The notes under the pieces were generated by a model. It was not told the DNA's origin. It saw nothing but the letters and a program-made list of their open reading frames with translations, and searched no databases. Shown in pieces: positions 1,835 through 34,224 of a DNA stretch of 34,224 nucleotides (positions within the stretch are counted from its first letter, which is position 1; each line of letters opens with the position of its first letter). This stretch comes from an uncultured Propionibacteriaceae bacterium (GTDB taxonomy: Bacteria > Actinomycetota > Actinomycetes > Propionibacteriales > Propionibacteriaceae), in assembly GCA_964528755.1 (NCBI GenBank), contig CAZGWN010000036.1, forward strand, positions 1 to 34,224, written 5' to 3'. The position numbers were made by a program, and so were the translations under genes.

Positions 1835-1864
1835 CCCGGCATCATCCCACGCCGGTCGAGACGA

Positions 1865-2428
1865 TCAGTAGTGGTTGACCTGCAGTTGCTCGTAGTCGGT
1901 GCCCTTGGCCCGATCCATCGACGCCCGGATCTCCGCCTCGGCGTCGTCGCGGGAGGCCCAGGTGGCGCCCTCGACCGACTTGCCGGGCTCGAGGTCCTTG
2001 TAGACCGTGAAGAAGTGCTCGATCTCCAGGAGCTGGAACTCCGGAATGTCCTCCAGGTCCTGCAGGTGGTCACGCCGGTGGTCGGCGACCGGCACGCACA
2101 GCACCTTGTCGTCGCCGCCGGCCTCGTCGCGCATCCGGAACATGCCGATTGCGCGGCACTTGATCAGGCAGCCGGGGAAGGTCGGCTCCGGCACCAGCAC
2201 CATGGCGTCCAGCGGATCGCCGTCCTGGCCCAGGGTGGTCTCGATGAAGCCGTAGTCGGAAGGGTATTGGGTGGCGGTGAACAGGGTGCGGTCGAGCACG
2301 ATCCGGCCGGTGTGGTGATCCATCTCGTACTTGTTCTTGGTCCCCTTGGGGATCTCGATGGTCACGTAGAACTCCAGCCCACTGGGCTGGGTGGCGGAAC
2401 CACCCGACACGCGGTAATCGTCAGTCAC
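1865..2428 (-). CDS. ppa: Inorganic pyrophosphatase
   Basis: 187 aa family I PPase signature ('[22 protein letters not shown]', '[10 protein letters not shown]'). GTG start at 2428 with a GGAAGAG RBS. Confidence 0.93.
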
Positions 2429-2548
2429 CTTCGGCTCTTCCTATGATGTGTCCGGATCGGTCACGGCAGACACTACCGAACCGGACCCTCGATCGGGGCC
2501 CGTCGTGCTGTCGTCCCGACCGGCGCAACGCGACGCAGGAGGCAGCCG

Positions 2549-3952
2549 ATGACCACCCACCGCCCGGCCGTGGGCTCGATCGTGCTGGCCTGCGGGGTGG
2601 TCACCTGCGCCCTCGGTCTGCTCGCCGTCGCCGTGGAGGGTGGGGTCGGGGCAGCCGTGGAGCGGTCCGTGGCCGCCGACCCGCAGCCCGCCGGGCAGAC
2701 CCCCGCGATCGGATCGTGGTCGCCCGTCCCGCTGCCCCAGGCGACTCCCGCCACCCCCGTCGCAACCCCGGTGGCGGGCACCCTGGACCCCGGGCCGTAC
2801 GCCGCCGCCCTGGACGGCGTCACCGGCTCGGGCCTGTCCGGGGACCGGTACGGGGTCGTGGTCGACCCGGTGAGCGGTGACGCGCTCTGGGACAGCGGCG
2901 CCGATGAGGCCGTGCTGCCCGCCTCGACCATGAAGCTGCTGACCTGCCTGGCCGCCCTGGACCTGCTCGGCCCCGCGCACCGCTTCCGGACCGCCGTCGT
3001 GGCCGGCGCCGACGACACGATCGTGCTGGTCGGGGGCGGGGACCCGTACCTGTCCTCGAAGCCGACCGCGAGCGCGCCGGGCCGGGCGAGCGTGAGCGAC
3101 CTCGCCGCGCGGACCGCCGGGGCCCTGCACGCCGCCGGGACCACGAAGGTGCGGGTGGCCTGGGACAACACGTTGTTCGACGAGTCCGGGTGGAACGACG
3201 ACTGGCCGACCACGTACGCCGACCAGGTCACCCCGGTCGGCGCGCTGGTCGTCGACCAGGGCCGGCTCGACGGCACCAGCCCCGGGCGGCGTACCACCAC
3301 GCCGGGCCGGGATGCCGCCGAGGCGTTCGTCGCCGCGCTGGAGGGGGCCGGGATCGACGCATCGCTGACCGACCCGGCCGAGGCACCCGAGGGCGCCGAG
3401 GAACTGGCGGCGGTGGACTCGTTGCCCCTCAGCGGGATCGTCGAGAACCTGCTGGTCCACTCCGACAACGACGCCGCCGAGATCCTCGCCCACCAGGTTG
3501 GCGTCGCGGCCGGCACGGGCGGCTCCTTCGAGGGCGCCGCCGACGGCGTCCGGCAGGTCCTGACCGAACACGACCTGTGGGACGACCACGCGGTGCTGTC
3601 GGACGGGTCGGGGCTGTCCCGGGAGAATCGGGTGACGCCGACGATGCTGGCCGGGGCGGTCGCCCTGGCCGTGACCGACGACCGCTATCGGGCCCTGCTG
3701 TCCGGGCTGCCGGTCGGGGCCGCCACCGGCACCCTCGCCGAACGGTTCGGCGCCTCGGCGGCAAGCGCCGGTCGGGGTGCCGTCCACGCCAAGACCGGCA
3801 CCCTGTCCGGGACGAGCGCTCTGGCCGGCTACGCCGTCGGCGCCGGGGACGCGCCGGTGGTCTATGCCTTCGTCGTCAACGACTCCACCGACGACGTCTC
3901 AGCGCGGGCCTGGCTCGACCGGGCAGCGAGCGCGGTGGTCTCCGCCCGATAG
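2549..3952 (+). CDS. dacB: D-alanyl-D-alanine carboxypeptidase/endopeptidase, PBP4 family (peptidase S13)
   Basis: 467 aa with an N-terminal TM/signal segment. Carries SxxK 'STMKLLT', SDN 'HSDNDAAE' and KTG 'HAKTGTL' motifs. ATG at 2549 follows an AGGAGG RBS. Confidence 0.88.
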   Translation: MTTHRPAVGSIVLACGVVTCALGLLAVAVEGGVGAAVERSVAADPQPAGQTPAIGSWSPVPLPQATPATPVATPVAGTLDPGPYAAALDGVTGSGLSGDRYGVVVDPVSGDALWDSGADEAVLPASTMKLLTCLAALDLLGPAHRFRTAVVAGADDTIVLVGGGDPYLSSKPTASAPGRASVSDLAARTAGALHAAGTTKVRVAWDNTLFDESGWNDDWPTTYADQVTPVGALVVDQGRLDGTSPGRRTTTPGRDAAEAFVAALEGAGIDASLTDPAEAPEGAEELAAVDSLPLSGIVENLLVHSDNDAAEILAHQVGVAAGTGGSFEGAADGVRQVLTEHDLWDDHAVLSDGSGLSRENRVTPTMLAGAVALAVTDDRYRALLSGLPVGAATGTLAERFGASAASAGRGAVHAKTGTLSGTSALAGYAVGAGDAPVVYAFVVNDSTDDVSARAWLDRAASAVVSAR

Positions 3953-18518: not shown

Positions 18519-19754
18519 TCACTGGTGCCGGTGGGCACCGCGTCCCACCAGCTCCGTGACCAGCACCGCCACGAGCAGCGCCGCGCCCAGCAGCGGGGTG
18601 GCGGCACTGAGCAGGACCTGCCCCGGGGAGTAGTCGAGTTCCTGCATGCCGCCCGCGGGCAGGATCTGATAGGGCGCGATCCAGACCCACAGGACGAGAA
18701 CGGCGCCGATGCCGAGCACCCACCCGGACTGCGCCGGGTGTGCCTCGCGGCGGACGCGCTGGACGAGCAGGACGGCCAGCGGCACGATCCACACGAAGTG
18801 GTGGGTCCACGAGACCGGGGAGACCAGGGCACTGGTGAGCCCGACGAGCACGATGCCCAGCGCCTCCTCCCCTCGCCGGCGGAGGACGAGGGCGGCGGCG
18901 ATGCCGAGCACCAGGACGATCACCGAGACCGCCGTCCCCACGGCCGGTCCCGTGGTCAGCCCGAACGCCCGCATCGCCGCGCCGGTGAAAGACTGGTTGT
19001 CCAGATAGATCGGGTCGGACTCGAACCCGACCGAGTGCGTCGTCGCCAGGCGGTGCCAGTAGAACGCCGAGTAGCCCGGCAGCACTGCCCACCCGATCGC
19101 GGTGAGTACGGCCGCGGTGACGATGGCGACCAGCGCCTCGCGCCGGCGCCGGGCGAGCAGCAGGTAGACGATGAACAGGCCCGGCGTCAGCTTGATCGCG
19201 GTCATCAGGCCGACGATCCAGCCGGCCGGCAGACGACGACGCCCCGGCGCCCCCGGCATGATGTCCAGCAGGATCAGACAGGTCAGCAGGATCTCGACCT
19301 GTCCGAGAGCCGTGGACAGGGTCACCGGCACCGCGGTGGCGATGGCGGCCGCCGCGACCAGTGAGGCCGGCCGGCCCCGCAGCCCGCAGCGGTGCACCAC
19401 GGCGATGATGCCCGCCCAGCCGGCGATCGCCCACAGGATTTTCCACCCGGCGGTGGGTCCCAGCAGGAAGACCATGAACCCGATTGCGGCGATCGGCGGG
19501 TAGACGAAGGCATTCGGGCCGTCGCGATAGAGCTCCCCGCCGTGCAGCGCGGCCCTCGCCCCGTCGACGTAGATGCCGAAGTCGGCCATCGCGCCGGCGA
19601 GCCCGTCCGGGGACAGCGCCTGCGGGATGAGCCAGGACACGAGGCCGGCCACGATCGGCAGGCCGAGCTGGGCGAGGACCCGGATCCGCGCACGCCGGTC
19701 CTGCGGCCCCGGCCGTTCGTACGTGTCGGTGCGGGTGTCCACGGTTGCCTCCAC
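18519..19754 (-). CDS. GT87/DUF2029 family integral-membrane glycosyltransferase (polyprenyl-phosphate-sugar dependent, GT-C-like)
   Basis: 411 aa with ~10 TM helices and an 'AIKLTPGLF' motif typical of DUF2029 mannosyltransferases. GTG start. Confidence 0.65.
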   Translation of the reverse strand: MEATVDTRTDTYERPGPQDRRARIRVLAQLGLPIVAGLVSWLIPQALSPDGLAGAMADFGIYVDGARAALHGGELYRDGPNAFVYPPIAAIGFMVFLLGPTAGWKILWAIAGWAGIIAVVHRCGLRGRPASLVAAAAIATAVPVTLSTALGQVEILLTCLILLDIMPGAPGRRRLPAGWIVGLMTAIKLTPGLFIVYLLLARRRREALVAIVTAAVLTAIGWAVLPGYSAFYWHRLATTHSVGFESDPIYLDNQSFTGAAMRAFGLTTGPAVGTAVSVIVLVLGIAAALVLRRRGEEALGIVLVGLTSALVSPVSWTHHFVWIVPLAVLLVQRVRREAHPAQSGWVLGIGAVLVLWVWIAPYQILPAGGMQELDYSPGQVLLSAATPLLGAALLVAVLVTELVGRGAHRHQ

Positions 19755-19882
19755 GGGCCCATCCTGTCATCTCCGAGTCCGGGCCCGGCGGCGCGGACAG
19801 CGACCCGCTGACCCGTCGCCGGGCATCCTGGTCGATGATCGTTCAGGAGACCGTCCGCCCCCACGAGCAAGGAGACATACCC

Positions 19883-21334
19883 ATGGGGACTGCTGTTGTT
19901 GTCGGCATCATCGCCGTCGTCGTCGTCGCTGCGGCCATCGCGGTGCCGATCATGGTCCGCGGCTGGATCAAGGTGGCCCGCGCCGACGAGGCGCTGGTCA
20001 TCTCGGGACGGCGCCAGAAGACCGAGACCGGGGACTCGCCGGTCACGGTGATCGTGTCGGGTCGGGCGGTGGTCAACCCGTTCCTGCAACGGGCCGAGTT
20101 GATCTCGCTGCGATCACGCCAGGTGGCGATGACCGCCGAGGCGCAGTCCGAGGACAACGTGACCCTGCAGGTGGAGGCGGTCGCGATCGTCAAGGTCGGA
20201 TCCTCGGCCGAGCTGGTCCGCCGGGCCGCCGAACGGTTCGCCTCCCAGGACGCCGCGATCGAGCACTTCACCACCGAGCAGCTGGAGGGCGCCCTCCGCG
20301 GGGTCGTGGCGACCCTGCCGGTCACCGGGCTGATGCGCGACCGCAAGAAGTTCTCCGAGCAGATCGCCTCCGACGTCGCCACCGAGCTGGCCGAGCAGGG
20401 GCTCATCCTGGACTCGTTCCAGATCAAGGGCATCACCGATCAGGTCGGCTACATCTCCTCGCTGGGCATCCCCCAGGTCGAGGCGAAGCGGCGCGAGGCC
20501 GAGATCGCCCAGACCGACGTGAAGCGGGCGATCACGGCCCGCGAGATCGCCACCGCCGAGGAGAACCTGATCGAGCAGACCCGGCTGGATCAGAACCGGG
20601 CGAACGCCGCGGCCGAGGTCGGCAAGGCCCGCGCCGAGGCGGAGCAGGCCGCCGCACTGGCCCGGGCCAGCGCCGAACAGTCGGTGCTGGTGCAGGAGGC
20701 CGAGAACCGGCAGGCGCAACTGGACGCGGACGTCAAGCGGGTCGCCGACGCCGAACGATACAAGCGTCAGCAGGCCGCCGAGGCGGCCGCGTTCGAACAG
20801 GCCAAGAAGGCCGAGGCCGCCGCGAAGGTGGCCCAGGCCGAGGCCGACGCGGCCCGCTACTCGCGTGCGCAGGCCGCCGAGGTGGCCGCGTTCGAGGAGA
20901 TCAAGCGCGCCGAGGCGCTGGCCCGCTCGGCCACCGCCGAGGCGGAGGCCACCCGCCAGAAGGCCCAGGCCGAGGCGGAGGCGGTCCGGCTGGCCGGTCA
21001 GGCGAAGGCGGACGCGATCGAGGCCGAGGCGGCCGCCCTCGCCCGCAACCAGGAGGCGCTGCTGGCCCGCCAGGCCCTGGACCAACTGCCCACCCTGATG
21101 GAGGCCTTCGCCGCCGGGTACGCCAAGGTCGGGTCGGTGACCGTGATCGGATCCGGCAACGACACGGCACCCGGCGCCCGGATGGCCGCCGAACAGGGGG
21201 TCGCCCTGGCCGGGGTCTTCGAGTCGGTCAAGGCGACGACCGGGCTCGACCTGGGTGAGTTGATCGCGGGCCGGGCCACCGGGCGGGCGATCGGCGAGGC
21301 CGTGTCCGGCTCCGGCTCCGGCTCCGGCAACTGA
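19883..21334 (+). CDS. Flotillin/SPFH (band 7) domain protein, YuaG/FloT-like
   Basis: N-terminal TM 'MGTAVVVGIIAVVVVAAAIAVPIMVRGWIKVARADEALVISG', an SPFH domain, then a long Ala/Glu-rich coiled coil (EA repeats). AAGGAGA RBS at 19868. Confidence 0.82.
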   Translation: MGTAVVVGIIAVVVVAAAIAVPIMVRGWIKVARADEALVISGRRQKTETGDSPVTVIVSGRAVVNPFLQRAELISLRSRQVAMTAEAQSEDNVTLQVEAVAIVKVGSSAELVRRAAERFASQDAAIEHFTTEQLEGALRGVVATLPVTGLMRDRKKFSEQIASDVATELAEQGLILDSFQIKGITDQVGYISSLGIPQVEAKRREAEIAQTDVKRAITAREIATAEENLIEQTRLDQNRANAAAEVGKARAEAEQAAALARASAEQSVLVQEAENRQAQLDADVKRVADAERYKRQQAAEAAAFEQAKKAEAAAKVAQAEADAARYSRAQAAEVAAFEEIKRAEALARSATAEAEATRQKAQAEAEAVRLAGQAKADAIEAEAAALARNQEALLARQALDQLPTLMEAFAAGYAKVGSVTVIGSGNDTAPGARMAAEQGVALAGVFESVKATTGLDLGELIAGRATGRAIGEAVSGSGSGSGN

Positions 21335-21735: not shown

Positions 21736-22107
21736 CTATTGCCTCCTGCCCATGGAGTCGGCCGCACCATGGGTCGATGGCGGCTCACAATCGACCGCCG
21801 CGGCCAGGGCGGCGCACAGCTCACGCATCCGGCTCCCATCGAGCCGGCCCAGCCTTGACACGAGGAGCCCCACCGACACTCTTTCGACGAAGTCGAGGCT
21901 GACCACGCACGGCTGCGGTACAGGGTCGCGGCCCGGCTCGAGCGCGACCTCGGTCACCAGATCGCGGACGTTCGTCGTGCACGGAGCGACCAGCGCCCTC
22001 CCGAGCCGAGGGATCACCACATCTCGGCTCAACACCACGACCGGCCGACGTCCGATGTCCGGCGGCTCACACCACCAGACGTCCCCGCGGCTGACTCGAC
22101 CCCTCAC
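21736..22107 (-). CDS. Type II toxin, MazF/PemK family endoribonuclease
   Basis: 123 aa. 'MRGRVSRGDVWWCEPPDIGRRPVVVLSRD...APCTT' matches the MazF/PemK hallmark motifs RGD(I/V)WW and RP(A/V)LV(V/L)S. Its start overlaps the upstream antitoxin stop by 4 nt. Confidence 0.8.
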   Translation of the reverse strand: MRGRVSRGDVWWCEPPDIGRRPVVVLSRDVVIPRLGRALVAPCTTNVRDLVTEVALEPGRDPVPQPCVVSLDFVERVSVGLLVSRLGRLDGSRMRELCAALAAAVDCEPPSTHGAADSMGRRQ

Positions 22108-22340
22108 GACGCACCGGCCGCCTCGCCGAACGACGCCAGGTCACCCCACGCGTCGGGGGTGTCGATCGGCACGCGATCGTACGCCTCGAAGGTCGCGTCC
22201 ACCGCAGCCCGTCGGTGCTGCGTCAGCAGAGCCGTCAGGGCCGCCTCCACCATGGAGGCATCGGTCTCTCCGACATGCAGATCCCTGGCCGCCGCCAACA
22301 AGTCACGGTCCACGGTCGTGCTCAGCCTCACCTTTACCAT
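22104..22340 (-). CDS. Cognate antitoxin, ~78 aa MazE/RHH-like
   Basis: 'MVKVRLSTTVDRDLLAAARDL...' is a small acidic C-terminus protein. It overlaps the toxin gene by 4 bp and is preceded by an operator-like inverted repeat. The annotated 138 aa ORF is an upstream extension. Confidence 0.65.
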   Translation of the reverse strand: MVKVRLSTTVDRDLLAAARDLHVGETDASMVEAALTALLTQHRRAAVDATFEAYDRVPIDTPDAWGDLASFGEAAGAS

Positions 22341-23032: not shown

Positions 23033-23905
23033 CTACTGGCGGCCGCGGGCGAGTTGTTGGAGGAGGTAGGTGCCGTAGCCGGACTTGACCAGGCTCTCGG
23101 CCCGGGCGCGCAACTCGTCGTCGGACAAGAACCCCATCCGCCAGGCCGCCTCCTCCGGACACCCCACCTGCAACCCCTGCCGGGCCTGCAGGGTCCGCAC
23201 ATAGTTGCCCGCATCGTTCAACGAGTCGAACGTGCCGGTGTCCAGCCACGCCGTCCCCCGCGGCAACACCTCCACCTGCAGGCGACCCGCACGCAGATAG
23301 TGATCGTTGACGTCGGTGATCTCGTACTCCCCCCGCGCCGACGGCTGCAAGGATCGCGCGATCTCGACCACCTGGTTGTCATAGAAATACAGCCCCGGCA
23401 CCGCAAAATTCGACCGCGGCACCGCCGGCTTCTCCTGCACCGACAACGCCCGCCCCGACCCGTCGAACTCGACCACCCCGTACGCGGACGGGTCGGCCAC
23501 CCAGTAGGCGAACACCGCCGCACCCTCCAGACTCTCAAACCGGCGCAGCCGGGTCCCCAGACCCGGACCGTAGAAGATGTTGTCACCCAACACCAACGCG
23601 ACCCGATCGGACCCGATGAACCCCGCCCCGATCGTGAACGCCTGCGCCAGACCCCTCGGCTCCGGCTGCGTCGCGTAGGACAGCGACACCCCGTAGCGCG
23701 ACCCGTCACCCAACAACCGCTCGAACGCGGGCGCGTCGGCCGGGGTGGTGATGATCAAAATGTCGCGGATCCCCGCCAGGATCAGCGTCGTCAACGGGTA
23801 ATAGATCATCGGCTTGTCATAGACCGGCACCAACTGCTTCGACACCCCGATCGTGATCGGATGAAGACGCGTACCAGCCCCACCAGCCAAAATGATCCCC
23901 CGCAT
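23033..23905 (-). CDS. rmlA: Glucose-1-phosphate thymidylyltransferase
   Basis: '[38 protein letters not shown]...' is the canonical RmlA N-terminus. ~290 aa. The annotated 396 aa ORF is an upstream extension. Confidence 0.9.
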
Positions 23906-24093
23906 AAACCCGACTCTGGCAGCCCGGCCGAGGAGCCGCAAGTCGGGAGCCACCGGCGGTCGCGCCCGGGACCACCGTCGGTCCGCAGGAAGGGAAACCC
24001 AACTTGGCGCGGCCGCCGCACCCTGATAGTTTCTGACCCGGATGCTCGGGAGCATCCGGTCGGAAAGCAAGACGCAAACCTTGGGGGACGTCC

Positions 24094-24648
24094 ATGCGCA
24101 GTGAACACAGGTCAACTCAGGCGGCCACGTCACGGCCGTCACGCCGCACCGTCGTGCAGGGAGCCGCGTGGGCCACGCCGGCGATTGCGCTCGGCAGTGC
24201 CGTGCCCGCCATGGCCGCCTCACCGACTCCGGGCGAGTGCCTGGTGTTCTCCCTGGCCGGTGACTCCTGCAAGTGGCCCGGCTCGGGGAGCAAATGGTCG
24301 TACCACCTCGTTCTTTGCGTGGCGAAGTCCCCCTCCTGCGCTGACACCGGCGAGGCGACGCTCACAATCACCCGCCTCACGAACAACGCCGATAAGCCCC
24401 TGACGTCTTGCGGTGACACCCCGTTCCCGCTGACGTTGACCGTGCCCGCGACCGGCCAGATCTGCCGCGACCTCGGCGCCTTCCGCTCTGAAAGCTCCGC
24501 CAGCAAGATCGTCATTTACGGCAGCGCGGGCGGCACCGGGACCGTTAAGCTCGGGGAAGTAGACGCCCCCCGGATTGCGGCGAGGACGACGAGAGCCCCT
24601 GCGCCTCCTGAGCCCCGCGGTCGCGCCGGCGGCTACCATGCTGACTAG
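24094..24648 (+). CDS. Small secreted Cys-rich hypothetical protein with a Tat-like signal ([12 protein letters not shown])
   Basis: 184 aa. Twin-arginine motif plus hydrophobic segment, with predicted AMA-ASP cleavage. Seven Cys in the mature part. GGGGGACG RBS. Divergent from rmlA. Confidence 0.45.
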
Positions 24649-24686
24649 GTTCGGCCGTCCGTGCCGCACATACACTCGGGGGATGC

Positions 24687-26522
24687 ATGCGCACAGGCAG
24701 TCCTGAGGGACCGGCCTGGCTGAGGAACGTTCAGAGGGTCAGGCGGCCGCTCACACTGGTTCCGTGGCGGATGCGCGGGAAGCTCTTCCTGCTGGGCGCT
24801 GCCAGTGTCCTGTCCGCGCTCCTGGATCTGGCGGGCGTGCTGGCCATGATGCCGCTGATGCAGCTCCTCACAGTGCCGGACTCGGTGCCCGGCGTCCTGC
24901 AGCGTTTCCTGGTGCCGGTCGTCGGCACGGACAACCGGCGGACCCTCCTGCTGGCCACCGCGCTGTTTGTCGGCCTCATGTTCATCCTCAAGAACGTGAC
25001 GATGGTCGTCCTGCGCTGGTGGAGCATCGGGGTCACCTCCCGAGCGTCGGCAGCCGCCCAGGCCACGTTGCTCGACAAGTACGTCCACGCGTCGTACGCC
25101 TCCCACCGCCAGCGCACCAAACCCAAGATCATCCAGGCCGTCACGGGGGCCGTGGACTCCTACTTCGCCGGGGTGCTGCTCGGCGTCATCGGGATCCTCA
25201 CCGACCTGGTCACGGCCGCCGTCCTGCTGATCTCGCTCCTCGTTCTCGCCCCCGTGGCGTCACTGGTGGCCGCCGTCGTCTTCTGTGGTGCCGCGCTGTT
25301 CATGGTTCGTGTCCTCAAGCCGTACGCCATCCGCCTCGGACTCCGCGGTCTCGAGCTCAGCACGCGCATGTGGAGCTATCTCAACCCGGCCATCGAAGGA
25401 TTCCGGGAATCCCGCATCTTCGGACGCGAGGACTTCTTCGTTCAGCAGTTCCGAGCGAATCGCTTCGAGTCGATCAACCCCAAGCGGGGCAATCAGGTGC
25501 TGGGCGAACTGCCGCGGTACTTCATGGAGATCGTCATGATCTTCGGGATCCTCGCCGTCGCCATCCTCGTGTTCTCCACCCGTCCCGACGGCGAGGCCTT
25601 CGGCCTGTTGGCGGTCTTCGCCGCGGCATCGGTCCGGATCGCCCCTGCGCTGAACCGGGTGGTCGCCGCGGTCAACGGGCTGCGCTCGAGCGCGGCGTCG
25701 CTCGACATGCTCCTCGAGGAAATGACCAACCTCGACTCCGAGGACTCCACCGTCACCGAGGCCACGGACGATGTCCAGACGATTCCCGACGGCGACATCG
25801 ACGTCGCAGACGTGAGTTTCCGCTACCCCGACGCGTCAACCGACGTCCTCACCGACATCACCGTCACCATCCCTCGCGGTCGCACCATCGCCCTCGTCGG
25901 ATCCTCCGGCGCAGGCAAGACGACGTTCGCCGATCTGCTGCTGGGCCTGCTGGTCCCGACATCGGGCACCATCTCGGTGAGCGGCATCGACGTTTCCCGC
26001 CACCCGCATGCCTGGCGCCGAAGCGTCGCGGCCGTCTCCCAAAAGGTCTACCTGTGGGACGCCCCCGTCCGCGACCTCATCACCTTCGGACAACCCGCCG
26101 ACGACGTCGACCACGAACTGCTGACCCAGGTGACCCGACAGGCCCGCCTCGAGGACATCATCGCCTCGCTCCCACACGGACTCGACACCTACGTAGGCGA
26201 AGGCGGCACCCGCCTCTCCGGCGGCCAGGCCCAACGCATCGGCATCGCCCGCGCCCTGTACGCCCAGCCGCACGTGCTGATCATGGACGAGGCCACCAGC
26301 GCCCTGGACAACGAAACCGAACATGAGATCACCTCCACGATCGACGCCCTGCACGGCCAACTCACCGTCATCGTCATCGCCCACCGCCTCTCCACGGTAC
26401 GCAACGCCGACCAGATCCTGTTCTTCTCCCAAGGCCGCCTCGCCGACCGCGGCTCGATGTCCTCACTACGCCAGACAAACGCCGAATTCGCCCACCTCGT
26501 CGAACTCGGGCAGTTGGCGTAG
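24687..26522 (+). CDS. ABC transporter, fused permease/ATPase (type I exporter)
   Basis: Six N-terminal TM helices. Walker A 'GSSGAGKTT', signature 'LSGGQAQRIGIARAL', Walker B 'LIMDEATSALD', H-loop 'IAHRL'. Start uncertain between 24687 and 24771. Confidence 0.85.
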   Translation: MRTGSPEGPAWLRNVQRVRRPLTLVPWRMRGKLFLLGAASVLSALLDLAGVLAMMPLMQLLTVPDSVPGVLQRFLVPVVGTDNRRTLLLATALFVGLMFILKNVTMVVLRWWSIGVTSRASAAAQATLLDKYVHASYASHRQRTKPKIIQAVTGAVDSYFAGVLLGVIGILTDLVTAAVLLISLLVLAPVASLVAAVVFCGAALFMVRVLKPYAIRLGLRGLELSTRMWSYLNPAIEGFRESRIFGREDFFVQQFRANRFESINPKRGNQVLGELPRYFMEIVMIFGILAVAILVFSTRPDGEAFGLLAVFAAASVRIAPALNRVVAAVNGLRSSAASLDMLLEEMTNLDSEDSTVTEATDDVQTIPDGDIDVADVSFRYPDASTDVLTDITVTIPRGRTIALVGSSGAGKTTFADLLLGLLVPTSGTISVSGIDVSRHPHAWRRSVAAVSQKVYLWDAPVRDLITFGQPADDVDHELLTQVTRQARLEDIIASLPHGLDTYVGEGGTRLSGGQAQRIGIARALYAQPHVLIMDEATSALDNETEHEITSTIDALHGQLTVIVIAHRLSTVRNADQILFFSQGRLADRGSMSSLRQTNAEFAHLVELGQLA

Positions 26523-26726
26523 CCGCCCGGCCGCCACTACCCGGGGCCGCACGAACGCCCTCTCGCACTCCTCGCCCTGGCTCGAAAGTCGTCTGACAGC
26601 GACGTCACTGGCAACCCATCGCCCTCCACACCGATTCGCGTCGATCACAGAGAATTCATTAGTAAAGACACCAACCTTCCAAGGAACCCGCAGAAGGTCC
26701 ACTAGTGTCGCGTTTCCGACAGTGGA

Positions 26727-28105
26727 GGGTCTGTCCGGTAAACGGTGTGTGGGGTCCGGCGGTTTTCAGTGAGTGGCTCTCTCGAACCGTCCGGCGAAGG
26801 TGATCGCGAACGCGTTCAGCGCGGGCTTCCACCTCATCACCCAGCGTGCCCTGCCCCCGCCGGTGGGGTCAAGCGACCTCGTCACGAGATAGAGGCACTT
26901 GAGCGCGGCTGCCTCGTTCGGGAAGTGGCCGCGCGCCCTGACTGCCCTGCGGTATCTCGCGTTGATCGACTCGATCGCGTTGGTCGTGCAGATCACTCGC
27001 CGGATCTCGACGTCGTACTCCAGGAACGGCACGAACTCTGCCCAGGAGCTGCGCCAGAGCTGGATGATCGCCGGATACCGCTCACCCCACTCGGTAGCGA
27101 ACTCCTCGAACCGGTCCTTCGCCGCTTGCTCGGACGGAGCCGTATAGACCGGCTTGAGGGACTTTACGATCGCGCCCCGGTGCTGCCGTCCGGCGTAACG
27201 GAAGCTGTTGCGGATCAGGTGGACGATGCACTGCTGCACGACCGTCTGCTCCCAGGTGGTGTTGATCGCCTCCGGCAGCCCCTTGAGGCCGTCGCACACC
27301 GCGATCAGCACGTCCTCGACTCCGCGGTTCTTCAGCTCGCTGAACACCGGCAGCCACAACCTCGCCCCTTCCGCGCCGTCACCGGCCCAGATACCCAGGA
27401 TGTCGCGTTCCCCGTTCGTAGTGACGCCCATGACGACGTAGAACGGGGTGTTGCGGACCTGCCCGTCACGGACCTTCACCACGATCGCGTCGACGAAGAT
27501 CACCGGGTAGATCGCATCCAGCGGCCTGCTCGACCATTCGGCGAGTTCCCCGGTGACCTTCTCGGTGATCGGGCTGATCGTGTCCTTGGAGACCTTCGCC
27601 CCATAGACCTCGTCAAAATGCGCGGCGATCTCTCCGGTCGTGAGCCCTCTCGCGGTCAGCGACAGCACGATCTGATCGATCCCGTCCAGCCGCCGTTTGC
27701 GCTTCGGGACGATCACCGGCTCGAAGGACCCGTCACGATCCCGGGGAACCTCGATCTCGACGGGCCCGATCTCGGTGAGCACGGTCTTCGTCCGGCTCCC
27801 ATTGCGCATGTTCACCCCCAGCGGGGTCTCGCCGTGCTCGTGGCCGAGATGCTCGGTCAGCTCAGCGTTCAGCGCGGTCTCAAGCACGTTCTTCGAGAGC
27901 TGGTTCAACAGGCCACCAGGCCCGACCAGGCTCACACCCTGCTCCTTCGCCTGCGCAAGCAAGCGCTCGGCAAGGTCCTTCTGATCGATGATCCCTCCCG
28001 TCACGGGGTCAATCATCTCGTCGTCCAGCCGTTCGGTCGTGTCAGCCACGGCCGTCTCCTTTCGGATCAGGCCGGACCCTCACACACCGTTCTTCTGACA
28101 GTCCC
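26727..28105 (-). mobile_element. IS256-family insertion sequence, apparently intact (~1.38 kb) with imperfect ~30-bp terminal IRs
   Basis: Left end GGGTCTGTCCGGTAAACGGTGTGTGGGGTCC. The right-end reverse complement GGGACTGTCAGAAGAACGGTGTGTGAGGGTCC shares the core AACGGTGTGTG. Encloses a complete 427 aa transposase. No clean direct repeat at the flanks. Confidence 0.8.
26766..28049 (-). CDS. IS256-family (mutator-type) transposase
   Basis: 427 aa with DDE-type mutator-family motifs ('IYPVIFVDAIVVKVR', 'VLIAVCDGLKGLPEAI', 'VVQQCIVHLIRNS', 'RRVICTTNAIESINARYRR'). Confidence 0.9.
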   Translation of the reverse strand: MADTTERLDDEMIDPVTGGIIDQKDLAERLLAQAKEQGVSLVGPGGLLNQLSKNVLETALNAELTEHLGHEHGETPLGVNMRNGSRTKTVLTEIGPVEIEVPRDRDGSFEPVIVPKRKRRLDGIDQIVLSLTARGLTTGEIAAHFDEVYGAKVSKDTISPITEKVTGELAEWSSRPLDAIYPVIFVDAIVVKVRDGQVRNTPFYVVMGVTTNGERDILGIWAGDGAEGARLWLPVFSELKNRGVEDVLIAVCDGLKGLPEAINTTWEQTVVQQCIVHLIRNSFRYAGRQHRGAIVKSLKPVYTAPSEQAAKDRFEEFATEWGERYPAIIQLWRSSWAEFVPFLEYDVEIRRVICTTNAIESINARYRRAVRARGHFPNEAAALKCLYLVTRSLDPTGGGRARWVMRWKPALNAFAITFAGRFERATH

Positions 28106-29208
28106 AAAGTTGGTTGATGGTTCGCTTTCCTGAGGATTTCGTCGGCGGTCTTGGTCCAGATGAAGGCGTGTTTGCGGTCGTTCCAGCCGGTGATGAATTG
28201 CCGGATCTTGGCATTGAGGTCTTTCACGCTTGTGAACACGCCGCGGCGGATCGCTTGCTTGTCGATGATCCCGAACCAAACTTCGACGAGGTTCAGCCAC
28301 AACCCGGATGTCGGGGTGAAGTGCACGTGGAAGCGGGGATGCTTCTGGAGCCAGTCGTCGACCTCGGGGGTCTTGTGGGTGGCGTAGTTGTCCATCACCA
28401 GGTGCAGGTCCTGGTCCCGGTAGGCGCGATCCAGCTGGCGGAGGAAGGCAAGGAACTCCTGGCGGCGGTGCTTCGGCTTGACCGCGCCGGTGACGTGCCC
28501 GGTCGCGATCTCCAGCGCCGCGAACAGTGTCGTCGTGCCGTGCCGCTCGTAGTCGTGGGTGCGTTTCTCCGCATCGCCCGGCCGCATCGGCAGCATCGGC
28601 GCGGTGCGGTCCAGCGCCTGAATCTGGCTCTTCTCATCCACGCACACCACGACCGCGTTATCCGGCGGCGCCACATACAGGCCGACGACGTCGGTGACCT
28701 TACCGACCAACTCCGGGTCGGTGGGGAACTTGAACGTCTCGGCCCGCCAGGGCTGCACCCCGTACGTGCGCCACGCCCGCGCCACCGTCGCGTTCCCGAT
28801 TCTCAAGTGATCCGCCAACAGCCGCGACGACCAGTGCGTCACCCCGAACTTTCTCGGCGGCTGCTGCAGTGTCGCCGTGATGATGCGCTCGTCATCGACG
28901 TGCTTGGGACGCCCCGCACGCGGCGCGTCGACCAGGCCCGCCAGCCCCGCCTCGGCATACCGGTTCCGCCACGTCCACACCGACGTCGTCGTCGTTCCCA
29001 CCTCGGCCGCGATCCGCGCATTCGCGATCCCCTCCGATGCGAGCAGCACGATCCGGGCCCTCCTCGCCAGCCCCGCACCGATTGCCGTGGACCGCGTCCA
29101 CGACATCAACTCATCCCGATCACCATCCCAGAGCACCAACGCCGGAGCAGGAGAACTCGCCACAACCAAACTCTCCCAAACCACCAAACACTCACGAACT
29201 AACGGCAC
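28042..29208 (-). CDS. IS630-family transposase; the last ~21 codons are read-through into IS256 sequence
   Basis: N-terminal HTH ('LVLWDGDRDELMSWTRSTAI...ARRARIVLLASEGIANARIAAEVG') and a DDE domain ('VVCVDEKSQIQAL', 'LHLVMDNYATHKT', 'HFTPTSGLWLNLVEVWF'). The frame runs across the IS256 junction. Confidence 0.75.
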   Translation of the reverse strand: MPLVRECLVVWESLVVASSPAPALVLWDGDRDELMSWTRSTAIGAGLARRARIVLLASEGIANARIAAEVGTTTTSVWTWRNRYAEAGLAGLVDAPRAGRPKHVDDERIITATLQQPPRKFGVTHWSSRLLADHLRIGNATVARAWRTYGVQPWRAETFKFPTDPELVGKVTDVVGLYVAPPDNAVVVCVDEKSQIQALDRTAPMLPMRPGDAEKRTHDYERHGTTTLFAALEIATGHVTGAVKPKHRRQEFLAFLRQLDRAYRDQDLHLVMDNYATHKTPEVDDWLQKHPRFHVHFTPTSGLWLNLVEVWFGIIDKQAIRRGVFTSVKDLNAKIRQFITGWNDRKHAFIWTKTADEILRKANHQPTLGLSEERCVRVRPDPKGDGRG

Positions 29209-29240
29209 GAGACACTAGAAGGCCGAGATGCTCCGACCTG
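28106..29240 (-). mobile_element. IS630-family element whose 3' end is interrupted by the IS256 insertion
   Basis: Contains the IS630-type transposase ORF. The native C-terminus and right IR are displaced by IS256 at 28105/28106. The outer boundary near 29240 is approximate. Confidence 0.55.
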
Positions 29241-29279
29241 CTGACTGGACCCGGATCGTTTCCGGTTCCTGGGAGCTTG

Positions 29280-30392
29280 TCACAGCCCAACATGCTCCAT
29301 TGTCCGCGAGAATGCGGACTGGCAGGCTGTTGCATTAGCCCGTGAGGGCAGTTGGTGACGTTCGCCATACACATCCGCGACAATCCCGGCAACATCACCG
29401 TCCGCTGCCAGGTGGACGACCGGGGGTTCTGGACAGGCCGCAAGCGCATCCGCTGTCTTCGCGATCTTGGGAACCACGACAGGCGTTCCGACGCAGGTCC
29501 CAACAATCGCGGCGTGCATACTGGTCGTGAAGACCGCTCCCGCCGCAGCCAGCACATCGGTAATCTCCGCAGCCTTCAAGTTTGTCAGAACTGGCACCTG
29601 CTCCTGTTGGGCCACCGCCTTCAGGACCTGGTCTTCCCCGGCGTAGCGGCCGAGAGGCAGATTGACCACCGGAAGCGGCTTCAGGCTGCGAACAACCGCA
29701 CTAATCCGATCCGGCGACCACCCGTGGAACTCGGCGGCCTGCACCACGATCGGGGCTCTGTCCACGCCCCATCGCTGACGCAACAGCTGTCTCCCCCTCG
29801 CACGCAGCGGGTCGGGGTCCCGGAAGGCAGCCGTGGCAAAGACCGCATCCGGCGCTGCGACCGTCAGCTGCTCGTCCATCCCAACTTCTTGTAGGCGGTC
29901 TCGGCCGACCGCCGTCCGCACCCAGGCAGAGCTGATATGCGACACAGCCGCACGGACATCCTCCGAGGGCGCCAACTCGTGAACGCCAACACTGACGAAG
30001 GCCGTAGGGGCGTCGCCCCATCCAAGCCGAGGAAGCCATGGACCCGCTCCCGCAGGAAAGCTCCGCATCCGGAACAGTCGACCACGAACCCGAGACAGCC
30101 GCGAGCCGCGCCTGCCCGAGGGGATATTGAGGTGGTCCTTGGCGATCGTGCCAATGTCCGTGCGAATCAGATCGCCACCGCCGACGAGTACCGCATCCGG
30201 GTGCACGCGCGCCAACTCCCGCAGTGGTCGAATCCGTTGTCCACCCGGCGTTCTCCCCTCAAGAGGGGCAAAGTATTCGATGTGACCATCAAAACCGCAG
30301 TCGCGCAACAACCCGGAGACGACCTCCGGGTACAACTGGTCACCATAGTTGTCCACGGAAAAGTCACCCACATGCGCAATAACCCGAACCAT
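29280..30392 (-). CDS. Polysaccharide pyruvyl transferase (CsaB/WcaK/PssM-like, PF04230-type)
   Basis: N-terminal 'MVRVIAHVGDFSVDNYGDQLY' matches the pyruvyl transferase G-x-x-N-x-G-D motif. ~371 aa. ATG at 30392 with a GGAGAGGTG RBS. The longer ORF start at 30497 is an extension. Confidence 0.65.
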   Translation of the reverse strand: MVRVIAHVGDFSVDNYGDQLYPEVVSGLLRDCGFDGHIEYFAPLEGRTPGGQRIRPLRELARVHPDAVLVGGGDLIRTDIGTIAKDHLNIPSGRRGSRLSRVRGRLFRMRSFPAGAGPWLPRLGWGDAPTAFVSVGVHELAPSEDVRAAVSHISSAWVRTAVGRDRLQEVGMDEQLTVAAPDAVFATAAFRDPDPLRARGRQLLRQRWGVDRAPIVVQAAEFHGWSPDRISAVVRSLKPLPVVNLPLGRYAGEDQVLKAVAQQEQVPVLTNLKAAEITDVLAAAGAVFTTSMHAAIVGTCVGTPVVVPKIAKTADALAACPEPPVVHLAADGDVAGIVADVYGERHQLPSRANATACQSAFSRTMEHVGL

Positions 30393-30648
30393 GCCGCACC
30401 TCTCCAAGCCGCCGTGACGTCCAAGACCACCGACGGCACGCCTTACGAATGACCGATTGGGCCCCCTGCCGAATTGCATTGAGCACTTCTCCAGCACAAG
30501 ACCAGGCCAGCCCCCACCTGCAGCCGTGGCCCTGCAACATCAAGGGACGTGCGCTGCACAGGCAGGCACTTGCCCGGGATGATCCTACGGCCGGCACTCC
30601 GACGGGCGCGAACTCGGGAGCCGGCCTCAATCCTTCACCGGTTGGGCT

Positions 30649-30931
30649 GGGTCTGTCCGGTAAACGGTGTGTGGGGTCCGGCGGTTTTCAGTGAGTGGCT
30701 CTCTCGAACCGTCCGGCGAAGGTGATCGCGAACGCGTTCAGCGCGGGCTTCCACCTCATCACCCAGCGTGCCCTGCCCCCGCCGGTGGGGTCAAGCGACC
30801 TCGTCACGAGATAGAGGCACTTGAGCGCGGCTGCCTCGTTCGGGAAGTGGCCGCGCGCCCTGACTGCCCTGCGGTATCTCGCGTTGATCGACTCGATCGC
30901 GTTGGTCGTGCAGATCACTCGCCGGATCTCG
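30649..30931 (-). mobile_element. Truncated second copy of the IS256-family element (left IR plus 3' end of the transposase gene, 283 bp)
   Basis: 100% identical to 26727-27009 over 283 bp and diverges abruptly after CGCCGGATCTCG. Encodes the last ~80 aa of the transposase ('RRVICTTNAIESINARYRR...FERATH'). Confidence 0.85.
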
Positions 30932-32112
30932 CCGGCGAGCGCGACGAACTGGCACCAGATCCGGTTCTGGTCGAACCCGTGCAACGGCAGGTTCGTCAGG
31001 CCGGTGTCCTTCGCGTTGCGGATCGGCGTCCTCACACCTCGCCCGACGCCTGTGACGGACCTCCAAGTCGGTGAGCTGACCCCGGGTGGCGTTCGTGGCG
31101 AACGCGGTGAGGCGGTAGCCGTCCACGTCGTCGAACCGCAGCTGGGCGCCCGGATGCGGTCGTTCCCGGCGGACGATGACGCGCATCCCGGCCAGGTCGC
31201 CCAGACCGGTGAACTCGGCCACGTCGGCCCCGTCGCGGGGCCGACCATCGGTGTTGTAGGCCGACTCCAAGATGTTCTCCGGGATCAGTCGATAGAGCTC
31301 TGGGGTGTTCATGGGCAGGGTGAACCCGACCAAGTACGCCACCCGTCGGTTCGTCAGGGTGGCGATGGTGCCCTTGGTCGACCCGGCACCGTCAATCCCC
31401 ACCAGCACCTTCCGTCCAGGCCGTGCCCCCAGGCCGATCTGGCCGAGCGCGTCGGCGATCCCCGTGCGGTGATCCTCCGCCGTGTCGGATCCGGCCTTGC
31501 CGGGCCGCAACAGGATCGTCAACGGCTCCCCGGTCCCCTCGGGGCCGTGGTCGTTGAGGCGCGCACAACGGGTGAAACCCGAAGCCCTTCTTGAACGTCG
31601 CACGCGCCCATTCCTTCTCACTGTGGGCGCTGACCAGCGTCGCGTCCAAGTCGACCACCAACGGATCCGCCACCCTCGCCCGCCGGGCCGGCGACGCGTC
31701 CCCGGCACGTGCCCAGGCGGTCTGCCGGGGCGGTCTTGCGGGCCCGCCCGATCGCGGCGACCGCCCGCTTCGCATCCCTCGCGAGCAGCCTGATCAGCCG
31801 CGAGACGGTCGGGTCAGACGCGACCCGCCCGTAGAGGCCGGGCTCGTCCCGCAACTGGGCGAGGTCGGCAAGGCAGTCACCACCCAACGCCAACGTGAGC
31901 GCCAGGTCGCAGAGGATCTTGCCCGGATCGTGCACCGCCAACGGTTTGCGCCAGCCCGCCAGCTCTGTCGAGAGGGCCCGGTCCAGGCCGGTCGCCCGGA
32001 CGGCCTCGACGAGCAGCAGGCCGCCGGCCTGCCCGACCGCCGCGACGCCGGCCCGGTCACTATGGACGCGTGGGTAGGAGCCGGTATTCTTCACCTCGAA
32101 GGTGCTCCTCAC
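30932..32112 (-). pseudogene. IS1380-family transposase pseudogene (at least 3 frameshifts, 3' end removed at the IS256 fragment junction)
   Basis: IS1380-like segments lie in three minus-strand frames. The N-terminus (32112 downward) reads 'GGLLLVEAVRATGLDRALS...HDPGKILCDLALTLALGGDCLADL'. The middle reads 'LVVDLDATLVSAHSEKEWARATFKKGFGFHPL'. The next segment reads 'HGPEGTGEPLTILLRPGKAGSDTAEDH...RRERPHPGAQLRFDDVDGYRLTAFATN'. The last reads 'NAKDTGLTNLPLHGFDQNRIWCQFVALAGEI' and is fused directly to the IS256 fragment. Confidence 0.75.
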
Positions 32113-32515
32113 TACGGGCCAGAATGTGACCTAGACACTCCCATTCTCCCTAGCCAGGAGCACTTTCACATCCCCGGCCCCAGCAATCAAGACGACCCCG
32201 CATGAAAGGGGCAGGCCAAGTCGCGGATCGCTTCGTTCTCGAACAGCCCGATCGCGGACCAGTCAGGCGTTGTCATATGCATCGCCGATCAAGCCCTCCG
32301 CACCGACGCCGACCCTGACCCAGGAGCTTGGCTCGCTGTCGTCAACGAAGACGTGACCTGCGTCCTTCGACACCGATCGCGGATCATCGACTATAATGAT
32401 CAAGGCCATGCTGGAAGCGCTATGACAACGGGATGAGTTTGGCGCTTCGGCAAGGCGCAAGGCCCTAGACTCGGGATTCTGGGGTCTTGCATGACGGAAC
32501 CGAGAGGAGACAACG

Positions 32516-33406
32516 GTGGCGGCCAACTCACTTGACGCAGCGCGACAGGTCAAACACCGAGCGTGGACAGTTTGGCCGCACACGCGGTCGGTCTATCGCC
32601 GGACGATCGACCTAGGGTATAGGACGCAATCAGCAATTAGGCCATATCACTTCGACCTCGATCGACATCGCGACGCCTACGGCGATGTTCCCCGGATGTA
32701 TTTCCTACACCGGTCTGCGCCGGATCGCCCTCAGCGTTCCAAGACCGTTCGGCAGCGAATATTCTGCTTCTGGACAGGAGACAACGCACTGACCCCAGGC
32801 CGCAAGCGAGGCCTACAAGCGTTGCGATCCAGCCAGCCAGATACCGAAGTAGTCTTGGTGACAGCTCGGACGTTGAAAGACTGGATTCTTCCGGATCACC
32901 CGCTTCACGTCTGCTACGAAAGTCTGTCTCTGGTTCATCGATCTGATTATCTCCGAGCGTACTTCATGGCGTATTTCGGCGGCGGATACACAGACATCAA
33001 GCGCCCAACCGGCAATTGGCTTCAGAGGTTTGAAATGTTCCGAGATCCCACCGTCTGGCTCGCCGGCTATGCCGAGAAGTCATCAAGATCGTGTGGCGGA
33101 GACGATCATACCAAGCTCGGACAAGATATCCATCGGAACTACGGCAGATTAGTCAGCATCAGCGCCTTTATCATGCGATCGGGAACTCCATTCGCATGCG
33201 AATGGCTCCAAGAAGTCGAGCGCCGACTCGACTACTATCAGGAAGATCTGCTCCAGCACCCCGGAGGAACCTGGGGAGACGAGCCTGGCTACCCGCTTCG
33301 CTGGATAGAAATCGGATCAGACGTGTATCACCCGCTCCAGCTGAAATGCTTGGAGCACGTGAGGCGATCGCAAGCACTCCTTCCGGTGCTTGAGGGTCAT
33401 CGCTGA
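32516..33406 (+). CDS. GT32-like glycosyltransferase (OCH1/capsular-polysaccharide-synthesis type), lower-GC and probably horizontally acquired
   Basis: 'IFCFWTGDNALTP' and 'HRSDYLRAYFMAYFGGGYTDIKR' match the GT32 motifs (IWxG, and the a-x-x-D-x-x-R-Y-x-x-L-Y-x-Y-G-G-x-Y-x-D-x-D DXD region). GTG start at 32516 with a GAGAGGAGA RBS; ATG 32696 is an alternative. Codons are rich in A/T third positions, unlike the rest of the window. Confidence 0.55.
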   Translation: MAANSLDAARQVKHRAWTVWPHTRSVYRRTIDLGYRTQSAIRPYHFDLDRHRDAYGDVPRMYFLHRSAPDRPQRSKTVRQRIFCFWTGDNALTPGRKRGLQALRSSQPDTEVVLVTARTLKDWILPDHPLHVCYESLSLVHRSDYLRAYFMAYFGGGYTDIKRPTGNWLQRFEMFRDPTVWLAGYAEKSSRSCGGDDHTKLGQDIHRNYGRLVSISAFIMRSGTPFACEWLQEVERRLDYYQEDLLQHPGGTWGDEPGYPLRWIEIGSDVYHPLQLKCLEHVRRSQALLPVLEGHR

Positions 33407-33849
33407 GAAGCGGGCGCCAGAATTCCAGGGCAACCATGCAGTCCAACATTCGGGAAAGTCGCCCATGACATCTCTTGACGTCGACTAGAGCGGGCGGTAC
33501 GAACTGTTGACATGGGATGTCCCGTAGTTCCATTTCGAGAACAGGCCGTAGAATGAACGCATGGCGCCACAACGTCCGCCGGGCACCTCGTCGACCCTCA
33601 GGCCCAGATCGGTCTGCTAGTCTTCCCGCTCTGGCTCCTGCTGACGGGGCTCGAGTCCTTCGACCGATATCCCACTGATGTGCACCGGAAAAGCGCAAAG
33701 CGATCGATGCGGCCGTCGAAACCGCGCCATCTCGTCAGGTCATCTATCACCTCGGCGTAGAGCTGGCCCGTAGTTGCTCACCGAGAATTCACCCACGCAG
33801 AAATCACCATCATCGCCAACTCCCATCAACTGTCGAAGCTCTCGACCGC

Positions 33850-34194
33850 ATGGCCCAACCGGGAACGAAAATGACTACCCCACCCCCACGTCTTCCGCAA
33901 TCTGGCGATACTCGCCCCATGAGATGCATAGTCTCGACGGCCCGTAGGTTTAATGCCGTCACACCTCGGTTCGTCCCCCGACCTACCCATCCACCCGTCG
34001 TGGCGGTCTGCGTCTACCGGGCACACAACGAAGCCAATATTCTCAAGCTGATGAGGCAACTGCCGCGGCGAACCGAATACCACCTGCACGCCCTGGACGA
34101 ACCAACCGATCTCCTCGACCAATGGACGGAGTCGACGGGCCGAGGCGGTCGGATGCCGCTGCTCCAAACCGGCTCATCGCAATCGGGGGTGTAG
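33850..34194 (+). CDS. Hypothetical protein (weak call)
   Basis: 114 aa ORF in the lower-GC tail with no recognisable motifs. A competing minus-strand ORF (33826..34167) overlaps it. Confidence 0.2.
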   Translation: MAQPGTKMTTPPPRLPQSGDTRPMRCIVSTARRFNAVTPRFVPRPTHPPVVAVCVYRAHNEANILKLMRQLPRRTEYHLHALDEPTDLLDQWTESTGRGGRMPLLQTGSSQSGV

Positions 34195-34224
34195 GCGGGG
34201 TGTGAGCAGGTCCGGCGCGTCGGT

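Follow-up and report, generated by a model that had tools for sequence, protein, structure and literature searches.

Nested and decayed insertion sequences around a predicted polysaccharide pyruvyl transferase gene of an uncultured Propionibacteriaceae bacterium

The window analysed here is the whole of contig CAZGWN010000036.1 (assembly GCA_964528755.1, forward strand), a stretch of 34,224 nucleotides from an uncultured Propionibacteriaceae bacterium that contains a dense cluster of insertion sequences (IS). Between 26.7 and 32.2 kb, four open reading frames (ORFs) or fragments of ORFs match the transposase models of the IS256, IS630 and IS1380 families, as the initial annotation of this DNA had reported, and a pyruvyl transferase gene is the only non-IS gene trapped among them. 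The gene order downstream of an ABC exporter gene is an IS630/IS256 nest, the pyruvyl transferase gene, an IS256/IS1380 remnant, a gene for a 296-aa protein and a gene cut by an ISL3-family element (Table 1). All insertions within 26.7-32.2 kb are located in intergenic spacers. The extent originally given for the cluster, 26727-32200, agrees with the coordinates of the elements, except that the IS1380 remnant reaches ~32219 and that the ISL3 element, a fifth one, begins at 34171. No part of the reported arrangement arises from fortuitous similarity.

Table 1. Features of the insertion sequence cluster and of its surroundings, in window coordinates.
Feature	Coordinates	Strand	Evidence and remarks
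rmlA	23033-23923		next genes: a secreted protein, then an MsbA/PglK-like ABC exporter
TA outside the IS630 right end	26703-26704		sequence; in L004 and L005, too, GTGTC... is immediately preceded by TA
Terminal 15 bp of the IS630 element, GTGTCGCGTTTCCGA, severed by IS256	26705-26719	minus	matches the L004/L005 ends and the inverted repeat at 29201-29215
7 additional bp, CAGTGGA, left IS256 junction	26720-26726		absent in both DNA relatives; no second copy in the window
Complete IS256-family element, copy A	26727-28105	minus	1379 bp; ends GGG...CCC; relatives align end to end over these exact coordinates
Intact IS256 transposase gene, 427 aa	26766-28049	minus	NF033543 382 bits; PF00872 410 bits
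IS630 transposase ORF as now read, 373 aa	28042-29163	minus	NF033545 260 bits; same 373-aa gene called in L018
2 bp of extra sequence, AA, right IS256 junction	28106-28107		split may instead be 8+1
IS630 element body including the left inverted repeat	28108-29215	minus	82-83% DNA identity to Rhodococcus/Pseudonocardia plasmid copies; inverted-repeat alignment
TA outside the IS630 left end	29216-29217		sequence
Polysaccharide pyruvyl transferase gene, apparently intact, called as 399 aa	29280-30479	minus	PF04230; P0121 100% identical
IS256 copy B, terminal 283 bp only (one inverted repeat and the last 81 transposase codons)	30649-30931	minus	100% identical to copy A
IS1380-family pseudo-element, three frameshifts, 3' end missing from ~codon 396/465	30932-32219	minus	tblastn, frame translations, alignment of relatives, L016 and L015
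IS1380 segment, ISRer1 residues 364-396	31023-30925		tblastn
IS1380 segment, ISRer1 residues ~170-362	~31590-31028		tblastn
IS1380 segment, ISRer1 residues 124-179	31727-31560		tblastn
IS1380 segment, ISRer1 residues 3-123	32091-31729		tblastn
First 54 bp of ISL3-family element, GGCTCATCGCAATCGG...	34171-34224	plus	contig ends inside; L015 and L016 run on into a PF01610 transposase

The complete IS256-family element, hereafter copy A, encodes a Mutator-type DDE transposase, as judged from its NF033543 score of 382 bits (cut-off 150). Its terminal inverted repeats are imperfect, with 22 of 28 nt identical, and together with its size they fit the IS256 family (~1.3-1.5 kb). The GGG...CCC termini agree with those of ten relatives, whose ends read GGG(A/T)CTGTC...GACAGTCCC, as in copy A. 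These relatives, with 83-88% DNA identity, come from plasmids of Arthrobacter, Citricoccus and Rhodococcus and from metagenomes, including soil. Copy A resembles IS256 of Staphylococcus and ISCth4 in its single Mutator-type DDE transposase, its length of 1.38 kb and its imperfect terminal inverted repeats, and is a not-yet-named member of the family, as no full-length relative found exceeds 88% DNA identity. An exact scan of the GTDB representative genomes with the IS256 ends returned no match. A degenerate scan of JGI metagenomes returned 50 loci, none above 94% identity, and no partner junctions were found among them. P0171, a cluster mate of the 427-aa transposase, was set aside because its element is only 85% identical to copy A. 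Intact as it is, copy A presumably retains its activity; the remaining elements are crippled or dead.

Copy A lies inside an IS630-family element. The IS630 ORF (28042-29163/29208, minus strand) reads through the junction and continues 64 nt into IS256, so that the native last five codons (SETRH) are swapped for 21 codons read from IS256. Its NF033545 match of 260 bits (cut-off 100) is that of an IS630-type transposase with helix-turn-helix (HTH) and DDE_3 domains. On the far side of IS256, GTGTCGCGTTTCCGA matches the terminal repeat of two DNA relatives, L004 and L005, where TA is followed by GTGTCGCGTTTCTGA..., and a further match is the inverted repeat at 29215 (GTGTCTCGTGCC...), with a TA following that repeat. 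The terminal inverted repeats of the element, GTGTCGCGT.. and GTGTCTCGT.., are flanked immediately outside by TA at 26703-26704 and 29216-29217, as is typical of the IS630 family, and the length of 1123 bp without nine extra bp described below is likewise that of the family. The IS630 element therefore extends from 26705 to 29215, with IS256 15-16 bp inside its end, and when its two parts are joined, an ORF is regained that stops at a TAG overlapping the terminal TA. Because the IS630 terminal repeat and its TA are found on the far side of IS256, the nesting of IS256 in IS630 is proven. The HTH and DDE_3 transposase, the TA at both ends, the length of ~1.12 kb and the stop overlapping the terminal TA are shared with the ISMsm5-like actinobacterial group of IS630 elements. 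However, the present element has at most 88% protein identity to its homologues, is split by IS256 15-16 bp from its end and carries a foreign 21-aa tail. A second nested case occurs within the same group, as the relative L005 (Pseudonocardia pFRP1-1, 1663-3010) is itself interrupted by an IS3-family element.

Elements of the IS256 family make an 8-bp target duplication, and their circle junctions carry 5-8 bp spacers of flank DNA (PMC7780238). The flanking 8-mers of copy A, ACAGTGGA and AAAGTTGG, do not form the expected duplication of 8-9 bp, in agreement with the initial annotation. The degenerate scan of JGI metagenomes was used to draw statistics on the relatives. Perfect 8-bp duplications (ggcggcga, gcagttcc, atgtcccg and gtccatcg) were present at four independent insertions of the same clade, and half of the full-length metagenome relatives also had none. 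The absent duplication is a property of one insertion event and not of the identity of the element. With 5 of 8 positions identical, ACAGTGGA and AAAGTTGG could be taken for a degenerate duplication; this was rejected, since three changes in 8 bp are implausible against 283 bp at 100% identity between the two IS256 copies. A second copy of the flanking 8-mer or 13-mer was sought elsewhere in the window and none was found.

The flanks of copy A are adjoining parts of one IS630, separated by nine extra bp only. Both DNA relatives (L004 and L005) read TTTCTGA/AGTTGG at this point, whereas the window reads TTTCCGA-CAGTGGA-(IS256)-AA-AGTTGG. The nine extra bp are located exactly at the two junctions of copy A and are not a duplication. 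The restored IS630 protein accordingly has 360 aa and ends in ...KANHQPT-FPL-SETRH, while PTSETRH is the C-terminus of every one of the ten homologues retrieved (80-88% identity), and 357 aa is the length of most among the 120 homologues listed. One way to account for this is that the nine bp are a native, in-frame insertion of three codons in this IS630 copy, where IS256 landed and where the duplication was lost by other means. The extra length is indeed divisible by three, the inverted-repeat alignment is about equally good with or without the nine bp, and the closest homologue is only 88% identical. However, none of the ten retrieved homologues carries the extra bp, the predominant length of 357 aa argues against 360 aa as the native one, and IS256 would have had to strike a 9-bp target in 1.1 kb by chance, with the missing duplication still unexplained. 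A native insertion, which implies CAGTGGAAA in an uninterrupted IS630, is therefore unlikely compared with an origin associated with the IS256 insertion, which implies TTTCCGAAGTTGG. As for such an origin, we can only speculate that the nine bp are a carried-over circle-junction spacer or filler left by end-joining repair; the left piece, CAGTGGA, fits the size of an IS256-family circle-junction spacer. Members of the clade produce 8-bp duplications, and what sets the present element apart is a copy A without one and with nine unrelated bp at its flanks, together with a copy B reduced to a 283-bp stump.

Self-comparison of the window, which the initial annotation had proposed as a check, revealed one long repeat: 26727-27009 and 30649-30931 are identical over 283 bp (100%), with an abrupt loss of identity on both sides. 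The identity of copy B to copy A starts exactly at the IS256 terminus (30649) and stops at IS256 nt 283. Since it starts exactly at the IS end, copy B originated as a real insertion; it lies ~170-260 bp upstream of the pyruvyl transferase gene. At its other edge it is fused to an IS1380-family transposase gene, and the resulting ORF, 30688-31248, starts in IS1380 and ends with the IS256 C-terminus.

The IS1380 gene was delineated by tblastn with two intact transposases as queries, that of ISRer1 (465 aa, pBD2 of Rhodococcus erythropolis) and an IS1380 transposase of Pseudonocardia. Four collinear segments were obtained in frames -1, -2, -3 and -1, ISRer1 covering residues 3-396 (E = 3e-116). 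Four frame segments imply three frameshifts, where the initial annotation had counted at least three. The first is a gain of 1 nt in a stretch of four C (31727-31730), the second lies at ~31559, following HPLCA, and the third is an additional G at approximately 31027, following RCED. The protein ends at residue 396 of 465, and ~240 bp including the right inverted repeat and the 3' 69 codons are gone. Fragments of the gene score 75 and 63 bits on NF033539, and as pieces they are not expected to reach the cut-off of 180 for the whole protein; taken together with the tblastn matches, they assign it to the IS1380 family. Alignment of five relatives, which share a leader up to GAAAGnnnnAGGnnAA, would place the left end at ~32219 (+/-3 bp). 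Protein identity to ISRer1 is 58-73% over residues 3-396, and the leader and the left-end motif GAAAGnnnnAGGnnAA are kept. Unlike ISRer1, the element here has three frameshifts, has lost its 3' 69 codons and right inverted repeat and shows ~67% DNA identity. With the right end deleted, two inverted repeats and a 4-5 bp duplication cannot be recognized, and it is a remnant rather than a complete member of the family.

The joint at 30931/30932 is interior to both IS256 and IS1380, which share CGAG(ATC) at this point. An IS end would be the starting point of a transposase-mediated deletion, and a whole IS would remain after homologous recombination. The position of the joint inside both elements therefore argues for illegitimate recombination rather than an IS256-mediated product, and we infer a microhomology-associated deletion. 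Insertion of IS1380 into copy B was also considered and rejected, because IS1380 is itself truncated at the joint.

The initial annotation had attributed both the duplication-less copy and the 283-bp fragment to homologous recombination between IS256 copies, or to IS256-mediated deletion or inversion. The missing duplication at copy A is in line with such an event, and the lack of one in half of the full-length metagenome relatives would mean that exchanges of this kind are common. However, an exchange would join unrelated flanks, whereas those of copy A come from one point of one IS630, so that an exchange between distant IS256 copies is not the source of the missing duplication. Moreover, no partner 8-mer is present in the window, and the internal end of copy B, fused to the interior of IS1380, is a joint that neither homologous exchange nor an end-initiated deletion gives. 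This explanation is not borne out, and we regard it as very unlikely. IS256 sequence on both sides of a cargo gene also recalls Tn4001-type, IS256-flanked composite transposons. However, one of the copies here lacks the transposase and the outer end, and the copies are direct and not inverted. Instead of a usable outer end on each IS copy, copy B keeps only the cargo-facing end, and the unit is immobile.

The last element of the window is cut by the contig end. In another assembly (L015, 3063-4597) it continues into a transposase scoring 192 bits on PF01610, and its end at 34171 reads GGCTCATCGCAATCGG, in accordance with the ISL3 consensus (GGCTC... terminal repeat). Both point to the ISL3 family. 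The element interrupts a 276-aa gene of no assigned family at 34171. In L014 (sample SRR23852796, 2021 onward), the same gene is uninterrupted and displays an empty ISL3 site, followed by GT4/GT1 and GT2 glycosyltransferase genes. The ISL3 insertion is thus polymorphic between samples.

The host TopA is 83-84% identical to that of Raineyella (Propionibacteriaceae), and by this measure the host is a Propionibacteriaceae bacterium near Raineyella. In two Raineyella genomes (L075 and L076), topA, a GT87 gene and rmlA follow each other in the order of the window, with hsp20 called in one genome only. Behind rmlA, Raineyella carries rmlCD, rmlB and then strain-specific polysaccharide genes, so that the variable part begins immediately downstream of the rml genes. 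In the window the GC content drops from ~0.72 to 0.58-0.68 from ~22 kb onward. Glycan genes lie on both sides of the IS cluster: rmlA and the ABC exporter on the left, and on the right the 296-aa gene, with a weak Caps_synth match, followed in the related contig L014 by GT4 and GT2 genes. Given this arrangement and the start of the variable part in Raineyella, the cluster is internal to the locus. The initial annotation is upheld in that the region has been repeatedly rearranged, but not in its proposal that the cluster marks the boundary of a glycan island. Similar IS nests ('graveyards') occur in variable surface-polysaccharide loci; the present case shares with them several IS families in intergenic spacers, a low-GC, strain-variable glycan cluster and one polymorphic insertion, and shows no essential difference.

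The pyruvyl transferase gene appears intact from its sequence. Its PF04230 score of 29.8 bits exceeds the gathering cut-off of 25.3, which assigns the protein to the family with a predicted activity only. A homologue from Microbacterium terricola aligns with it over residues 34-374 at 49% identity and with a single gap, and the true start of the gene is probably the ATG at 30392 (370 aa). A scan of 26500-32600 for promoters and terminators found nothing above chance.

Further left in the window, several other features were recorded. The C-terminal tail of DNA topoisomerase I, rich in Lys, Thr and Ala (PF07382 HC2-like match), is encoded by a 15-nt-period repeat at 14736-14945. A flotillin/SPFH gene (19745-21334, plus strand) is located between the GT87 gene and rmlA and is absent there from the syntenic block of the two Raineyella genomes; a related-locus scan of GTDB representatives with this gene returned only a Kocuria metagenome-assembled genome, at 59% identity and without synteny. 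A MazF/PemK-like toxin gene (PF02452, 52 bits) occupies 21736-22140 on the minus strand, between the flotillin-like gene and rmlA. At 23924-24700, rmlCD and rmlB are absent after rmlA, which leaves the deoxythymidine diphosphate (dTDP)-rhamnose pathway incomplete on this contig.

We interpret the cluster, with a probability of roughly 85%, as built up step by step through transposition and decay in two intergenic spacers of a cell-wall polysaccharide locus that varies between strains. In the first step, IS630 would have entered a TA in the spacer where the ABC exporter and pyruvyl transferase genes converge; its ends and the TAs are observed, and the TA is presumed to have been duplicated. IS256 then inserted into IS630, 15-16 bp inside its end, and the junctions as read have the last five transposase codons replaced, nine unrelated bp left and no 8-bp duplication. 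A sister IS256 copy inserted ~170-260 bp upstream of the pyruvyl transferase gene, where the IS end and the 100% identity are seen and suggest a recent event. The neighbouring IS1380-family element would have gained the three frameshifts now found in it, after which an illegitimate deletion at 4-7 nt of microhomology would have joined copy B nt 283 to ~codon 396 of IS1380, with a loss of ~1.1 kb of IS256 and ~240 bp of IS1380. Finally, ISL3 interrupted the gene at 34171, where it is missing in one other sample.

Several observations weigh against this history. Canonical IS256 transposition explains neither the missing 8-bp duplication of copy A nor its nine extra bp. Empty sites of IS630, of either IS256 copy and of IS1380 were not found, and the order of insertion consequently follows from the logic of nesting only. 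The 283-bp repeat is not spanned by short-read assemblies, so that its edges are not phased, and one low-coverage contig (L001; ERZ27252300 k141_318003) connects the body of the full IS256 with that flank of the 283-bp copy which faces the pyruvyl transferase gene.

These last points bear on whether the window was assembled correctly. The same sequence is present at 100% identity in contigs of other assemblies (ERZ27252300, ERZ27252301, SRR10872652 and SRR23852796). L002 and L003 cross 26726/26727 and then end 141 and 119 nt into the repeat, and L018 covers 26927-30789, including both flank/repeat joints of that segment. The initial annotation had named the disappearance of frameshifts or junctions on resequencing as the outcome that would count against it; instead, L016, from another assembly, matches 30649-34224 at 100% without gaps, with the IS256/IS1380 joint and each of the three frameshifts in place, and L015, which starts at 31109, also reproduces the IS1380 remnant.

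An assembler may nevertheless have misthreaded the repeat. The chromosome would then run from the ABC exporter through 22 bp of IS630-end sequence (15 native and 7 extra) and 283 bp of IS256 into IS1380, with the 3.6-kb segment elsewhere. L001 has the junction to be expected from this, and the repeat exceeds the k-mers of the assemblers, as L002, L003 and L018 all end 83-141 nt inside it. However, all four edges of the repeat are present in independent assemblies, a 3.9-kb circle without a replicon would be needed, and the pairing in the window alone rebuilds one coherent IS630 around a whole IS256. The simpler reading of L001 is a chimeric walk through the repeat caused by missing graph edges in a low-coverage sample, since L003 breaks off after 119 nt of the repeat and L015 does not begin before 31109. 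Such a misassembly is highly improbable.

The junction in L001 is also exactly what would be expected if, in a fraction of the population, the 3922-bp unit bounded by the direct repeats (26727-30648) were excised as a circle or amplified in tandem. RecA acts well on direct repeats of this length (283 bp). However, the junction is seen in a single contig from the sample with the poorest coverage and in none from the better-covered sample, and we consider this equally remote. A more novel possibility, also doubtful, is that the 7-8 bp at one end of copy A are a flank-derived circle-junction spacer brought in by an aberrant integration without target duplication, or, alternatively, that excision or amplification of the 3.9-kb unit switches the pyruvyl transferase gene.

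Successive transposition and decay, as we read the cluster, is routine insertion-sequence biology. The elements, none of them named so far, belong to the IS256, IS630, IS1380 and ISL3 families, and the closest relatives found range from 88% (IS256 DNA and IS630 protein) down to ~67% DNA identity (IS1380). The cluster has little import beyond annotation, for which it provides exact ends of three unnamed insertion sequences, and it is a worked example of a nested insertion combined with a microhomology deletion. The 283-bp repeat makes short-read assemblies of the glycan locus ambiguous. For researchers interested in copy-out/paste-in transposition, the duplication-less insertion with nine extra bp is a minor curiosity; if the spacer interpretation were true, it would document a naturally occurring, off-pathway copy-out/paste-in event. 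For the organism, the cluster shows a surface-glycan locus under remodelling in a Raineyella-like bacterium, with one insertion polymorphic between samples.

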